Source of the DNA: a virus
Taxonomy: Duplodnaviria > Heunggongvirae > Uroviricota > Caudoviricetes
Virus record (IMG/VR): IMGVR_UViG_2671180814_000016
DNA: 11,321 bases
Direction: 5' to 3' (one strand)
This document shows positions 1 to 11,321 of this stretch, in pieces. Position numbers and translations under genes: made by a program. The notes beneath the pieces were generated by a model that saw only the letters and a program-made list of their open reading frames with translations, did no database searches and was not told the DNA's origin. Each line of letters begins with the position of its first letter. Within the stretch, counting starts at the first letter, position 1.

Positions 1-435
1 AACAGATGTCTGGAAATATAGGGGCAAATCCACATTCTTATCGGTTACTAACGGCTTTAGTACTGAACTGGTTTCAATAGCTGGAAGAAATTTACCATCC
101 TTGAATTTCTTCACTTCTGATTCAGAACTACTACCAAAAGCAAAGTTACAGGGATCATTAGCCATTAGGTTAAATGCAATTGATTGTAGTACTGTAGTTT
201 TCAAAAGCTGGGAACAAGATTGAAGTACAATCTTTTTAGTACTTCGCTCTTGAGCTATATCCATTGGTTCTTTTTGGAAACTAAACGGAACCCAATCAAG
301 GCCCATATTCGGCCCGTCCACAAATTTAACTACACCATTACTAATCCACTCACTCGTTTTCTGTATCTTCGGCGGTTGTATCGTCGGTAGTACTTTCTTC
401 AGTATCCTCGTTAATTTCTTCTTGTTTGTTTCCAT
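1..435 (-). CDS. terL: Terminase large subunit (GpA-like), N-terminal 145 codons; 3' end runs off the left edge of the window
   Basis: Hand translation of the minus strand from ATG (plus 433..435) is open to position 1: [62 protein letters not shown]... The SEW..N and W.PF.FQ.E motifs at residues ~28-55 resemble the lambda gpA N-terminus as recalled (VEWADAN...WETLPFQRAIMNAM). Start overlaps the 3' end of terS in another frame, as Nu1/A do in lambda. Not in the ORF track because the stop lies outside the window. Confidence 0.6.
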
Positions 436-895
436 CCTCTATTACTTCCATGTCATCGGGTAACTCAAATTCCATTGAGCCTAATTGGTATAATGTTTTA
501 TCAATATGCGTTCTTAATACATCGCGTAAATCCTTTGCATCTGATTGTGCAAATAATTCAAGATAAGTTTTTGATGGTATTGCACGCACTGCTGTTTTGA
601 CCTGGAATAGATATTCCGTTAGTACCTGTTCTATATATTCAGTACTGACCACCAGCCCATTCTTTTCTGCTAATTCTAATTCTGCTAACTGCCGTTCTGC
701 TGAAAGCTTCTTCAAACGCTCTTGTTCAATTTGTTCTTTTGTATTAGTATCACGCAACGGCTTTAGTACATTATCTACAATCCAACTTCTTGCGTTTGAA
801 TCAGTGTCTGTCGGCATTCCCTTTTCTACCCAAGTTCGAACTGTAGATTCATCGTATCCGTACTGTCTCGCTAATGACCTTAATGAGATATCCAT
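350..895 (-). CDS. terS: Terminase small subunit, lambda Nu1-like (N-terminal HTH); unusually acidic C-terminal tail
   Basis: 181-aa ORF with ATG start and RBS AAGGA 6 nt upstream. N-terminus [21 protein letters not shown] aligns residue-for-residue with the lambda Nu1 winged-HTH region as recalled (LADIFGASIRTIQNWQEQGMP); EQERLKK matches Nu1 ENEKLRR. Same length as Nu1 (181 aa). Followed by the overlapping terL start. Confidence 0.8.
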
Positions 896-930
896 ATTTG
901 TTCCTTTTTATTTTATTTATAGGGTTTACA

Positions 931-1494
931 ATGTCAGACCGTAACAATGATTTTTCTCTGTTAGTAAAATTGCTGAACGGATTTTTGAAGAAAGATGAGA
1001 TAAAAAAAAGACTATATTCTTTCGTGAAAAAAGAAACTAATGATTGGGAAAAGTGGCTGCAAATAGAATTTGCTCATTATCTAACTTCAAAAAGGAAGTA
1101 CGAGCTACATCGTGAAGTTACGATATACCTCGATCCAATAGATTATCCTGATAGTAAACTTGCTAAAGTAGATTTGATACTGCGTGAAAAATCCACACCC
1201 TCTGATGATTATATTTTTATTGAGTTTAAATGTACTAAAGGTGTAGTACCATTAGTTAGGGGCTTAAATGCTGACAAAAATAAAATTAGTGCTATAAGAC
1301 AGTGTAACTACAAAATGCGTAATTATCTTGGTGTCGGATTTCATCTTTTTTGTGAACCAGATGATATCGAGTTTATGGAAAAGTACGTAACTGAAGAACT
1401 TAAAGGCTCTTACGCCGTGTTTAAATTATGCGAGTGTCCAGTAAGATATAATTGCCAATGTGAATTTAATGAAATTGGTGTGGTACTTTTTTAA
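931..1494 (+). CDS. Hypothetical protein, possible PD-(D/E)xK / VRR-NUC-like nuclease fold with Cys-rich C-terminus
   Basis: ORF-track ORF 874..1494; the ATG at 931 (MSDRNNDF...) is the likely start because 874 would overlap the divergent terS start. Weak SD-like AGGG 6 nt upstream. Motif pattern E ([10 protein letters not shown]) ... D (AKVDLIL) ... ExK (YIFIEFK) ... Q (ISAIRQ) fits restriction-endonuclease-like spacing. C-terminal [11 protein letters not shown] cluster. Fold assignment is by motif only. Confidence 0.55.
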
Positions 1495-1639
1495 ATGCGG
1501 TGCGGGTATGATCATTTTGTTCACACACAATTGATTAAACCCGCTGCCGAAAACCCTCGATAGTACCGCCAGTATGGAGGGACCCATTGAATGCAATGGT
1601 TAATATACTTTGTAAGCTATATACAATGAATCATGAGTA

Positions 1640-1942
1640 TCAAAGCCGCTTACATTTAATATCATCGTACAAAGTTCCTTCTTTGTTTAGATATCTCGAA
1701 CCGTAATTATATCCATCATCAAATGCTTCATTGGTTATTACCAGTTCCCTGTAAAATTTCTCATCAGGTGCTGTTTCATAATGAAATGCACCATAAGGCG
1801 GCGGCATTTTACCGAGATATCTTGTAACGTAGAAACTCATGTCAGTACTAAATGAATCGTTATGAATATCCCAGCATTTAAAGTCTGGAATAGCTGCACT
1901 TGTTGTTAAAGGTAATAATAATAGCAATATCAATTTTTCCAT
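1640..1942 (-). CDS. Small secreted protein (signal peptide, two Cys), unknown function
   Basis: ORF-track ORF 1640..2002 begins at a TTG. The internal ATG at 1940..1942 gives MEKLILLLLLPLTTSA|AIPDF, a typical Sec signal peptide with an A-x-A-like cleavage site. Mature protein ~84 aa. No strong RBS. Confidence 0.5.
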   Translation of the reverse strand: MEKLILLLLLPLTTSAAIPDFKCWDIHNDSFSTDMSFYVTRYLGKMPPPYGAFHYETAPDEKFYRELVITNEAFDDGYNYGSRYLNKEGTLYDDIKCKRL

Positions 1943-2105
1943 AAGAGATACCAATGCAAATGATTTAATTGCATGATAACACCTACAAAGTCTCAATACC
2001 AATTAACAAGCGATATGGCTGATTTTGTTTCAATTACGTAAAATAATTTAAAATATCGTTAATTAAAACAATTGTGATGAAATGCTCACCTTGTAATTTG
2101 TTGCG

Positions 2106-9738: not shown

Positions 9739-9778
9739 CTCATGGTTTCATCGCTCCTATTCGTTAGTGAATGACGCT

Positions 9779-9807
9779 ATGGTACTGGTTTAACGTTGAA
9801 AAGTCAA
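9779..9807 (-). promoter_or_regulatory. Putative sigma70 promoter (TTGACT-17 bp-TACCAT) for the 9337..9738 gene
   Basis: Minus-strand -35 TTGACT (plus 9802..9807) and -10 TACCAT (plus 9779..9784) with a 17-bp spacer, ~40 bp upstream of the ATG at 9738. Sequence-only call. Confidence 0.4.
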
Positions 9808-9824
9808 AAAAGTTAATTTTACCC

Positions 9825-9853
9825 TTGACTATTCTAACACACGCTGATATAAA
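9825..9853 (+). promoter_or_regulatory. Near-consensus sigma70 promoter with extended -10 (TTGACT-17 bp-TGaTATAAA), back-to-back with the minus-strand promoter and directed toward the recombinase 3' end
   Basis: Plus-strand -35 TTGACT 9825..9830, 17-bp spacer, TG at 9845..9846, -10 TATAAA 9848..9853. No credible plus-strand ORF downstream. Confidence 0.4.
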
Positions 9854-10033
9854 TGATTTGCTGTATTTTGCACGGAAATCTTAAACCCATCGGGTGCGTA
9901 GTTATATCCAAAATTCATAATCCCTCTTTTATTGCTCTATCTACAATGCCGTTAGATTTCGACATCGTAGATATATTGTTCAAATATTAACTCGCATAAT
10001 TCATTCTACAAGACCATAAATTCTCATTAGCTT

Positions 10034-11321
10034 TTAATCCATCCAATCAATCATATCTTCATTAACAATGATCTCAAATTTTTCACGCTTGAGAAGATTA
10101 AGATACAATCCAACATCATCAAGTATTTTGGTACGGCTAATGGCAAGCGACCACATATCAGTACCAGATGTAACGGAGGCAATGAAAACGGTTTTGCCCT
10201 CTTCATTGACAGTGTAGACACGCTCGCCGCTTGTTTCAGAGATTACGATCTCATGTAGTACTTCACCCCCGCCCCGCTTGTTATCAATCACAAGCGTATG
10301 GGATAGGACATCATTGAAGTATTCCAACTGTACAAATATACGCTTTTCAAAAACCCAGTACTTAACAGATTTCAGTACTAATCTTACTTCTTTCCGTAAC
10401 TTTGCACGTAACTCGACATTCAATGGATCAAGTACTTTATTAATATCGAAATCAAATACAGGGATTTCTTTGATGTTCTTTGAATTTAATATCTCAGATT
10501 CTATTTCTTCAATTCTATCCTGTACCTCAGTTAAACCCGTCATTAATGGTAACGAGGCTTTCTTACCTGCTGCCTTACGTTCATTAATTTTAACCTGATA
10601 GGTTTCTGCCTCTTTCTGTAAAGTACTTAACTCTTCTCGCAATGATGCAAGCAATGAATCTGAATCCGACTTACCTTCCATCATCAATTTATTGAAGTCT
10701 ACATTTTTGACAAGCTGTAGAATGTTCTTTTCAATTCTCATGTACTGGATAGATTTAGCATCGCAGATCTTCTTTTCTTCCCTGTTACGACAAATAACAT
10801 ACTTAGTTCGTACATGATTATAGTGAATTGCAATATTGCCCCCACAGTGACCGCATTTCAGCATCTTCGGGAAGAGGTTAGTAATGTAATCATCCTGAGC
10901 AATGGTAATGTCCTTACGGATACGATTAGCTATACCATTCCGCGATAACTTCTCATTAGCCCGTTCAAAGGTGAGGTTATCGATAATCTTCATGGTAACT
11001 ACTTTCTTATCACGTAGTACCCTCAGTACATTGACGGTACTCCACCCTTTCGGCAAGCGTTTTACAATCGCCCCTGAACCAAGGCCTGTCTCATAAAGTT
11101 TAAAAATCTCTCGGACAACTTCTGGTTCAAGTAATAGATCCTCTGCTGGCTTCTTCTTCTCCAACATAACGCGATCCATCATTCTATTCGCTGTCAGGAA
11201 CAACTCTTCGTCGATGATTTTCGGGTAAACGTTTGGTACTACCTCACCGTTGTAACGTTCATGCTCGCCCAACAAACGGCGATCACGTATCTGAGGTGTA
11301 CTGGCAATAGCGGACACTACC
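10034..11321 (-). CDS. Large serine recombinase/integrase, C-terminal ~428 residues; 5' end (catalytic resolvase domain) beyond the right edge
   Basis: Frame is open to the window edge; the ORF-track start at 11317 is a GTG and probably not the true start. Contains recombinase-domain-like segments (YPKIIDEELF, EPEVVREIFKLYETGLGSGAIVKRL), a zinc-ribbon motif (CGHCGG...C..C) and a coiled-coil-like stretch (LREELSTLQKEAETYQVKINERK), the architecture of large serine recombinases. Confidence 0.65.
   Translation of the reverse strand, partial: VVSAIASTPQIRDRRLLGEHERYNGEVVPNVYPKIIDEELFLTANRMMDRVMLEKKKPAEDLLLEPEVVREIFKLYETGLGSGAIVKRLPKGWSTVNVLRVLRDKKVVTMKIIDNLTFERANEKLSRNGIANRIRKDITIAQDDYITNLFPKMLKCGHCGGNIAIHYNHVRTKYVICRNREEKKICDAKSIQYMRIEKNILQLVKNVDFNKLMMEGKSDSDSLLASLREELSTLQKEAETYQVKINERKAAGKKASLPLMTGLTEVQDRIEEIESEILNSKNIKEIPVFDFDINKVLDPLNVELRAKLRKEVRLVLKSVKYWVFEKRIFVQLEYFNDVLSHTLVIDNKRGGGEVLHEIVISETSGERVYTVNEEGKTVFIASVTSGTDMWSLAISRTKILDDVGLYLNLLKREKFEIIVNEDMIDWMD

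Follow-up and report, generated by a model that had tools for sequence, protein, structure and literature searches.

We describe an 11,321-nt stretch of DNA from a virus of the class Caudoviricetes (IMG/VR record IMGVR_UViG_2671180814_000016; hereafter the window, meaning this whole stretch), which we read, with a probability of roughly 85%, as the integrase-side arm of a prophage of about 35 kb that lies beside the host gene yeaG in Shigella-type genomes, belongs to an uncultured Enterobacteriaceae family with a lambda-like head and a long tail, and has been disabled by the insertion sequence (IS) element IS2. A preliminary description, made from the letters of the window alone, had proposed a satellite-like layout, resembling a phage-inducible chromosomal island (PICI), or an otherwise atypical phage. 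Following the sequence beyond both edges, as that description had advised, leads to capsid genes on the left and to a yeaG junction with an att core on the right, and the element is a prophage of an uncharacterised but ordinary kind.

Open reading frames (ORFs) of the window were taken from a six-frame listing and scanned against Pfam, PHROGs, NCBIfam and PADLOC. Nearly all plausible genes lie on the minus strand, as do all of the anchor genes (recombinase, terS and terL); the serine recombinase and terS/terL do stand on the same strand about 9 kb apart as first described, with 9.1 kb from the recombinase stop to the terS start. Recombinase and terL are both fragments in the window, the former its C-terminal part and the latter its 5' part. 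The features that delimit the arm are as follows.

1–32, no strand: terminal repeat of IS2 (IS3 family) interrupting terL, by its match to IS2 ends.
33–306, minus strand: 5' fragment of terL, about 91 codons, the N-terminus of a lambda gpA-type ATPase (Pfam GpA_ATPase 1.2e-10; phrog_15, phrog_675).
350–895, minus strand: terS, a Nu1-like small terminase (phrog_57 1.3e-22; Phage_Nu1 7.6e-5, under the Pfam cutoff).
10034–11321, minus strand: large serine integrase, residues ~217–644 of 644, with the tail of the recombinase domain, a zinc ribbon and a coiled-coil region.

The left edge of the window falls in IS2. Positions 1–41 match IS2 ends at 97.6%, both in 451 plasmid records and across hundreds of E. 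coli and Shigella replicons, and homology to terL resumes from base 33. A metagenome contig (L003) that is 99.8% identical to the window over positions 33–10900 retains an intact terL of 589 amino acids (aa) with GpA_ATPase and GpA_nuclease domains, and its comparison with the chromosome HE616528.1 (locus L004), which we take to be Shigella sonnei 53G, reveals that 1330 bp have been cleanly inserted into terL, with a target duplication of about 5–6 bp. Three draft contigs (L010, L012 and L013) are essentially identical to the window and end at the same IS. IS2 splits terL after about 91 codons, and the window copy is unable to make an intact large terminase. The chromosomes HE616528.1 and CP026802.1, which carry an identical terS and neighbours, continue past this point with IS2 (rve, HTH_Tnp_1), the remaining 486 terL codons (GpA_ATPase, GpA_nuclease), a 176-aa head–tail joining protein (phrog_5774, 9.4e-11), a Phage_portal_2 portal, a Peptidase_S78–Phage_capsid fusion, two small genes of head-completion size and an 883-aa Peptidase_S74 fibre; L003 and L006 run on into genes for the tail tube and for a tail assembly chaperone. 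The earlier remark that no structural gene was present thus stands within the window, where it follows from the boundary falling in IS2, but not beyond IS2, where portal, capsid and fibre are found.

Further IS insertions are present in other Shigella-type copies. In E. coli AREA_C483 (L001 15509–19607 and 24411–27891) the element is a heavily degraded remnant, with terL broken by IS3-family, IS5 and ISSen4 insertions and the head and tail genes all deleted; an IS3-family transposase pseudogene of this copy harbours a group II intron (ltrA). The Peptidase_S74 fibre (815–1217 aa), or in its place two proteins of about 560 and 940 aa, is encoded after the head-completion genes and ahead of the tail tube (L003 16958–19609; L002 9422–13932); this position is unusual, and the protein could be a head or neck fibre.

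The remainder of the element can be read from relatives. Joining of overlapping fetched loci gave eight complete and two nearly complete IMG/VR contigs of 26–36 kb, all in the same gene order, and a relative in E. coli ESBLEC_MG48 spans about 35.6 kb between the two halves of ybhA; elements of the family measure about 31–38 kb. The shared order begins with the integrase, an o79-like and an o61-like gene (named after their counterparts in the window, listed below), a variable region, terS, terL, the head–tail joining protein, the portal and the protease–capsid fusion. It continues through two small genes, the large fibre (or two large proteins), the tail tube, two chaperone-sized genes and the tape measure (phrog_13674, 1.6e-49) to three distal-tail proteins, two of which are annotated in RefSeq as DUF2163 and DUF6950, a J-like tip of about 1100 aa (Phage_Tail_Tip, 6e-22), two or three small genes and a lysozyme on the opposite strand (Phage_lysozyme, 2.9e-10). 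One of these two or three small genes encodes an N-terminally anchored coiled-coil protein with a weak match to Rz-like spanins. At the far end come four conserved small genes, of which one has a SegE-like GIY-YIG domain and another two C-terminal transmembrane segments (f96, a holin candidate), then a second variable slot, a DNA methyltransferase (phrog_3820, 5.8e-104) and a DUF2188 gene. The packaging, head, tail and lysis gene set is complete for the family, the terL of the window copy being split.

At the other edge, the window holds the C-terminal 428 of the 644 residues of the recombinase (Pfam Recombinase 1.7e-7; Zn_ribbon_recom 8.8e-10; phrog_95 integrase 1.2e-22). The full-length protein carries Resolvase (PF00239), Recombinase (PF07508) and Zn_ribbon_recom (PF13408) domains, the Resolvase catalytic domain lying just outside the window, and an alignment of five members has S88, R91 and R94 among its invariant residues. 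In every relative the recombinase is the terminal gene of the element. The start codon of the full-length gene at the window's site lies 79 bp from that of the divergent host gene yeaG (PrkA family). The degraded AREA_C483 copy of the window's element sits between mipA and yeaG, and alignment of an empty mipA–yeaG site (L157) to this occupied locus mapped the junctions exactly (L001 11507–11556 and 36439–36488; L009 7661–7800; empty site, L157 2299–2348). A 10-bp core, ACGAAAGGAC, which includes the yeaG Shine-Dalgarno sequence and lies 8 bp before the yeaG ATG, occurs at each of the two junctions; attB is intact in the empty site and the short core is common to attL and attR. The element-side arms, AAAATGTTCCCAT and ATGGGAACATTTT, are 13 bp long and perfect inverted repeats of each other, and the rebuilt attP of about 55 bp reads AAAATGTTCCCATAGTATACGAAAGGACACACACCACAATCAATGGGAACATTTT. 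The yeaG junction, the duplicated core and the inverted attP arms identify the recombinase as the integrase of the element, which, as judged from these junctions, is inserted by its own large serine integrase at a core overlapping the yeaG ribosome-binding site. The suggestion that the recombinase is instead a resolvase or invertase, belonging to some unrelated element next door and co-linear with terS/terL by coincidence, had its basis in a window that holds only the C-terminal domains and shows no att site; it is rejected, as the least probable of the alternatives that we consider, given the full 644-aa large serine recombinase with its zinc ribbon, its terminal place in all relatives, the exact junctions from the empty-site comparison and a distance to terS that is kept within 6.8–9.1 kb at only 25–40% recombinase identity.

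Integration leaves the yeaG ribosome-binding site in place but puts the whole prophage between yeaG–yeaH and the native upstream region, and expression of yeaG in lysogens may hinge on read-out from the integrase end. The family uses at least three integration sites (yeaG/mipA, inside ybhA and beside nadC), and the recombinases found there have diverged; with large serine integrases at several new attB sites, it is a possible source of genome-engineering tools. In ESBLEC_MG48 the element interrupts ybhA after about codon 71 (L015 26192–27404; L002 31482–32099) and carries a complete YbhA paralogue (279 aa; 60–70% identity to the YbhA of the host) at a distance of about 160 bp from the truncated 5' piece, which looks like a spare copy of the disrupted gene. 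The same genome has a classical lambdoid prophage (cI/cro/O/P/Q, with a tyrosine integrase at ybhC) about 9 kb from the serine-integrase element (L015 2499–17207), a candidate co-resident phage if the family needed outside functions. At another locus (L130 12161–18426) the mipA-side neighbour of the prophage is another mobile element, in which a tyrosine integrase of the P4 type precedes a gene resembling phage tape measures, and the mipA region appears to gather mobile elements.

Lambda and the temperate siphoviruses with large serine integrases are among the closest comparisons. With lambda (Nu1, gpA, W and portal B) the family shares a Nu1-like terS, a gpA-type terL with ATPase and nuclease, a Phage_portal_2 portal, a small head–tail joining protein between terL and portal, a lambda-like tail tube and a J-like tip; it differs in that the early genes of lambdoid phages (N, cro, cI, O, P, Q, nin) are missing, the integrase belongs to the serine and not to the tyrosine type, the capsid is fused to a protease, and the distal tail has DUF2163 and DUF6950 proteins. 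With siphoviruses of the phiC31, Bxb1, TP901-1 and A118 type it shares a recombinase of 577–644 aa with Resolvase, Recombinase and zinc-ribbon domains at the prophage end, a short core, an attP with inverted arms, genes that are nearly all co-directional and a small integrase-adjacent gene that could be a directionality factor; unlike them it has Enterobacteriaceae hosts and no recognisable replication or repressor genes. Siphoviruses with large serine integrases are uncommon in Enterobacteriaceae.

Between the recombinase and terS lie 17 ORFs of 61–247 aa. In the four profile libraries none of them is assigned to a family for replication, CI/Cro control, antitermination, holins, endolysins or virion proteins. 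This bears out the earlier statement that no recognisable primase or helicase, CI/Cro-type repressor or holin/endolysin pair is present in the window. The description of the interval as small accessory-type ORFs (nucleases, exported proteins and a ribbon-helix-helix (RHH) protein) was likewise apt, for it holds HNH proteins and signal- or lipoprotein-like ORFs, the RHH being recognised by motif only. By a crude hydropathy scan, seven window ORFs have hydrophobic N-termini or transmembrane segments. The interval is set out below, with occurrence counted among the 85 fetched loci that carry relatives (terS is found in 75 of them) or among 13 elements compared in detail.

931–1494, plus strand: o206p, with a PD-(D/E)xK-like nuclease motif, adjoining terS; 36 loci.
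1640–2002, minus strand: o120b, small, with a hydrophobic N-terminus (segment 11–29; possibly exported), lineage-specific cargo; 10 loci, almost all close copies; no family match.
2162–2602, minus strand: o146, predicted membrane protein with three transmembrane segments by hydropathy, cargo; no family match.
2708–2977, minus strand: o89, small, with a signal-like N-terminus (hydrophobic segment 1–19), cargo; no family match.
2985–3347, minus strand: o120a, lipoprotein-like (MKKLLIGLLIALSTGC; lipobox-like LSTGC), recurrent cargo; 35 loci; no family match.
3353–3904, minus strand: o183, STM1697-like degenerate EAL-like protein, by its match to PDB 5hxg.
4097–4408, plus strand: o103p, divergent from o183, matching a label without function (phrog_2100 4.8e-9, unknown function); 41 loci.
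4541–5209, plus strand: o222p, N-terminally membrane-anchored, near-universal in the interval (cluster C2).
5466–5939, minus strand: o157, N-terminal transmembrane protein (segment 12–30).
6022–6765, minus strand: HNH_247, a McrA-like HNH domain with an unknown N-terminal domain (Pfam HNH 3.3e-6; phrog_8048).
7138–7219, no strand: five GCCGTAWT repeats, direct and inverted, in a 463-nt non-coding gap (6766–7228).
7229–7690, minus strand: o153, all-helical, in the variable slot after o61 and HNH_3; no profile match.
7812–8366, minus strand: HNH3_184, a free-standing HNH_3/NUMOD4 homing endonuclease (Pfam HNH_3 9e-13).
8421–8729, minus strand: o102, lineage-specific; 3 of 13 elements; no family match.
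8713–8898, minus strand: o61, a 61-aa RHH-like protein two genes from the integrase (cluster C0, conserved motif).
9087–9326, minus strand: o79, small, with two transmembrane segments, adjoining the integrase (cluster C1).
9337–9738, minus strand: o133, lineage-specific; 2 of 13 elements; no significant family match.

A scan of the window found no tRNA, nor any Rfam match at E <= 0.1, and among generic repeat, promoter and terminator scans only the GCCGTAWT array exceeded shuffle expectation.

Comparison of 13 elements (12 fetched loci and that of ESBLEC_MG48), with their ORFs clustered, shows that the recombinase-to-terS interval keeps a length of 6.8–9.1 kb while most of its content turns over. 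Its bounds are conserved, with integrase, o79 and o61 on one side and terS on the other: o61-like genes (C0) occur in 11 of the 13 elements, o79-like (C1) in 10, membrane-anchored o222p-like genes on the opposite strand (C2) also in 10, and an HNH_3 homing endonuclease in seven, and every other gene family is confined to five or fewer. In relatives, recognised defence genes of this interval encode a nuclease of the Old family (4.7e-75), a methyl-directed Type II restriction enzyme (mREase_II, 1.6e-62) and a PLD-like nuclease; in the window, PADLOC matches only the two HNH proteins. We infer that the 9-kb integrase–terS region is where the family keeps exchangeable cargo, and the hypervariability of the interval across the 13 relatives agrees with the earlier suggestion of a heavily moron-loaded genome. 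As in the hotspots of P2 and P4 prophages (PMC9122126), a fixed backbone position holds swapped, mostly small and often defence-related genes; the backbone here is another one, the positions are integrase–terS and holin–methyltransferase, and most genes of the window are not known defence genes.

Several products within the interval can be tentatively assigned. HNH_247 matches mREase_IV in PADLOC (4.7e-7) and, over the HNH domain only, McrA in the PDB (6ghc, 3.4e-5), which makes it a candidate Type IV restriction enzyme. HNH3_184 matches phrog_59 (2.1e-28) and the PADLOC HEase profile (1e-18). In o206p, D81, E98 and K100 are invariant in an alignment of 11 members, a pattern suggestive of a PD-(D/E)xK-like nuclease fold; neither single-sequence nor family-profile searches gave a hidden Markov model or PDB match for this protein. 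The o222p-like genes lie on the opposite strand in all elements that carry them and encode a hydrophobic N-terminus, and o222p itself, searched as a single sequence, has no family or PDB match. Free-standing genes of homing-endonuclease type (HNH_3/NUMOD4 and SegE-like GIY-YIG) recur across the family with partial conservation (e.g., f149, L001 14281–14730), and in several members such genes, including a GIY-YIG gene beside the h650 gene described below, adjoin genes for superfamily 2 (SF2)-like ATPases in the slot after o61.

The second variable slot, which has the holin candidate f96 on one side and the DNA methyltransferase on the other, holds a KAP NTPase (9.6e-43), a DUF2971 or a DUF3800 gene (L100 2115–3410; U_3300031110_572 30833–32230; L001 21678–22799) and looks like another cargo or defence hotspot. 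The family thus offers two fixed slots with fast cargo turnover, which include recognised defence genes and the STM1697 homologue o183.

An odd feature of the family is the absence of recognisable replication and lysogeny-control genes among the non-structural genes scanned. The search covered all window ORFs, the larger unknowns of the relatives, the conserved far-end genes and representatives of 42 further interval families, the last of which match only 8xMP, PLDc_2, DUF1493, DUF6998 and SACK1. With present profile libraries, the lack of recognisable replication and repressor genes in this set holds up, and its likeliest cause is early genes that go unrecognised. Early, regulatory and replication functions would then probably reside in the integrase–terS interval, in forms that profile libraries miss, and the slot after o61, with its SF2-like ATPases of the h650 and p469 types or with o153 and the repeat array, would be the best candidate for a replication module. 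The h650 type (650–690 aa, with a Walker A motif and a DEAH box by eye) fills this slot in four of the 13 elements; it matches the plasmid replication family CyRepA1 far below threshold (24 bits against a cutoff of 200) and shows weak tblastn similarity to helicase-like proteins of small Clostridioides phages. The p469/p481 type, an SF2-like ATPase of 469–510 aa (ResIII 2.2e-6, phrog_2467), fills it in two of the 13, with only weak tblastn matches of p469 to helicase-like or hypothetical phage proteins. Family-alignment profiles of h650, p469, o61 and o206p found nothing significant among PDB sequences. For o61, whose family of 50–88-aa proteins shows a strand–helix–G–helix pattern, the PDB result was a non-significant CopG/Arc/MetJ antidote at E 1.3; its position and RHH-like pattern make it the leading candidate for a regulator or directionality factor.

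In the lineage of the window the slot after o61 is occupied by o102, HNH_3 and o153. No match to o153 was found in Pfam, PHROGs, PADLOC, NCBIfam or, by tblastn, the phage database, and an AlphaFold2 model made without an alignment was unusable (mean predicted local distance difference test score 43.5). A derivation of o153 as a remnant of the h650, p469 or p481 ATPases was rejected, local BLAST of the window ORFs showing no relationship. The motif GCCGTAWT, clustered next to o153, occurs six times in the window against 0.56 expected, a number reached in none of 200 shuffles; the sixth copy, at 9516–9523, lies inside o133. The array is present downstream of every o153 homologue (eight relatives) and absent where the slot holds other genes. 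Since repeat clusters are confined to o153-type elements, the array belongs to an o153–HNH_247–o157 block, the clusters of which (C5, C10 and C11) co-occur in L003, L035 and L075; a family-wide origin in the slot, which was also considered, was rejected, short-repeat clusters being found only in o153-type elements. The array could serve as an origin of the iteron type, or else as the operator of the HNH_247 nuclease cassette. RNA folding of the 463-nt gap is modestly better than that of shuffles (z = -2.6 and -2.1 for the two strands), mainly because of the inverted repeats.

Several points weigh against our reading of the window as part of a phage-like prophage. Replication initiation, helicase loading, primase, CI/Cro repression and antitermination went unrecognised among the scanned non-structural genes of the family, so that a temperate phage with unrecognised early genes is argued from an absence. 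What is said of tail and lysis genes comes from relatives rather than from the window's own genome. There is no close cultured phage: the window has no megablast match among 50,697 phage records, and searches with the anchor genes, which the preliminary description had recommended, returned at best 35% identity for terL (Escherichia phage DCP80), with the next terL matches at about 27–29% (including Rhodobacter and Helicobacter phages), and for the recombinase about 28% over 40% of its length. Every recombinase locus examined lies at a contig end or beside host genes (mipA, nadC–ampD–ampE, yeaG–yeaH). The attP junction 21-mer expected of an excised or circular form was absent from IMG/VR and JGI metagenome contigs, a weak test by exact match in one lineage.

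In view of this absence, it is conceivable, if rather unlikely, that the family truly does without conventional replication and CI/Cro-type genes and depends either on early machinery of a new kind, for example interchangeable initiator modules in the slot after o61 (SF2 ATPases of the h650 or p469 type, or o153 and the GCCGTAWT array as an origin–initiator pair), or, for its amplification, on the host or a co-resident phage although it encodes a full virion. In either case early genes that stay dark to profile libraries, in the best-studied bacterial family, make these elements a compact test case for new replication and lysogeny functions.

A related alternative, in which the family produces virions yet cannot replicate alone, as a domesticated particle of the gene transfer agent (GTA) or PBSX kind or in reliance on replication by a co-resident phage or the host, we consider improbable. 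It would account for the lack of recognisable replication and repressor genes among the non-structural genes scanned from at least 13 elements and for the finding of integrated copies only, and it can claim the DUF2163 and DUF6950 annotations together with the distant terL relatives in Rhodobacter phages; DUF2163 is also the family of a distal-tail protein of the Rhodobacter capsulatus GTA (RcGTA). Among little-studied temperate phages, several mycobacteriophage clusters for example, a lack of recognisable replication genes is nevertheless common, and in some members of the present family a fixed slot is occupied by SF2-like ATPases, of which one has a weak match to a plasmid replication protein. 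The integrase is intact and the attP well formed, and neither mark of a GTA or domesticated prophage, namely the loss of integrase and att sites and a fixed, vertically inherited locus, was found. The terminase pair is of the cos type (Nu1/gpA), and like the orphan DNA methyltransferase it is typical of phages that package their own genome. The use of at least three unrelated sites and a patchy distribution point to horizontal spread rather than vertical domestication: megablast relatives occur in two of 5426 complete E. coli genomes, and others in Buttiauxella, Pluralibacter, Scandinavium and Pseudescherichia genomes and in 65 IMG/VR contigs. Copies that appear intact are those of E. coli ESBLEC_MG48, Pluralibacter gergoviae ATCC 33028 (L017) and Pseudescherichia vulneris NBRC 102420 (L019). 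The family is common in Enterobacteriaceae and IMG/VR and remains uncultured; a literature search for the prophage or for the yeaG/mipA site returned nothing relevant.

The satellite reading of the preliminary description, in which the window belongs to a capsid-forming PICI (cf-PICI)-like or PICI-like island that needs a helper for tails, lysis and induction, is far less probable still. It is understandable from the window alone, where an integrase, accessory genes and terS/terL stand together without replication, lysis or tail genes, an order that cf-PICIs and PICIs share, along with HNH nucleases and head genes (PMC10085698). Models of these islands nonetheless forbid tail and holin genes and take a primase-replicase and an AlpA/MerR/Stl regulator as core (PMC10085698). 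Past IS2 there is a full head module; relatives add the tail tube, chaperone, tape measure, distal-tail proteins, J-like tip, endolysin and spanin and holin candidates; no AlpA/MerR/Stl regulator or primase-replicase was found in Pfam, PHROGs or NCBIfam scans of the window ORFs and the 42 further interval families; and the integrase is of the serine rather than the tyrosine type. At 31–38 kb the elements are twice the size of such islands, 7–20 kb being the size given for satellites (PMC13376191). Because the family has a complete long-tailed virion and lysis gene set, we exclude a PICI or cf-PICI in favour of an ordinary prophage. The layout was called atypical with some justice, in that the scanned genes include no recognisable replication or CI/Cro module, but not as regards morphogenesis and lysis, for which modules are present; a complete standard phage genome in the flanking sequence, which had been named as the finding that would speak against a satellite, is accordingly there in half, its morphogenesis and lysis modules being found and its replication and CI/Cro module going unrecognised.

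Among the cargo of the prophage, o183 is the most widespread gene, occurring in 43 of the 85 loci. It matches STM1697 (PDB 5hxg) with a phmmer E of 4.6e-25 over its C-terminal half, plus a second matching stretch. In Salmonella, STM1697 keeps FlhD4C2 from recruiting RNA polymerase (PMC5622320), as one of the STM1697/YdiV-type EAL-like anti-FlhD4C2 proteins (PMC5622320; PMC10100727). With 183 aa against the 235 aa of STM1697, and borne by a phage in which it is conserved as cargo, o183 is by this likeness a candidate anti-FlhD4C2 factor, and its prevalence suggests a phage-borne motility switch; if it acts like STM1697, it would give the phage a means of shutting off host motility. In some Shigella-type copies (L004, L014) o183 is split by an IS21-family element.

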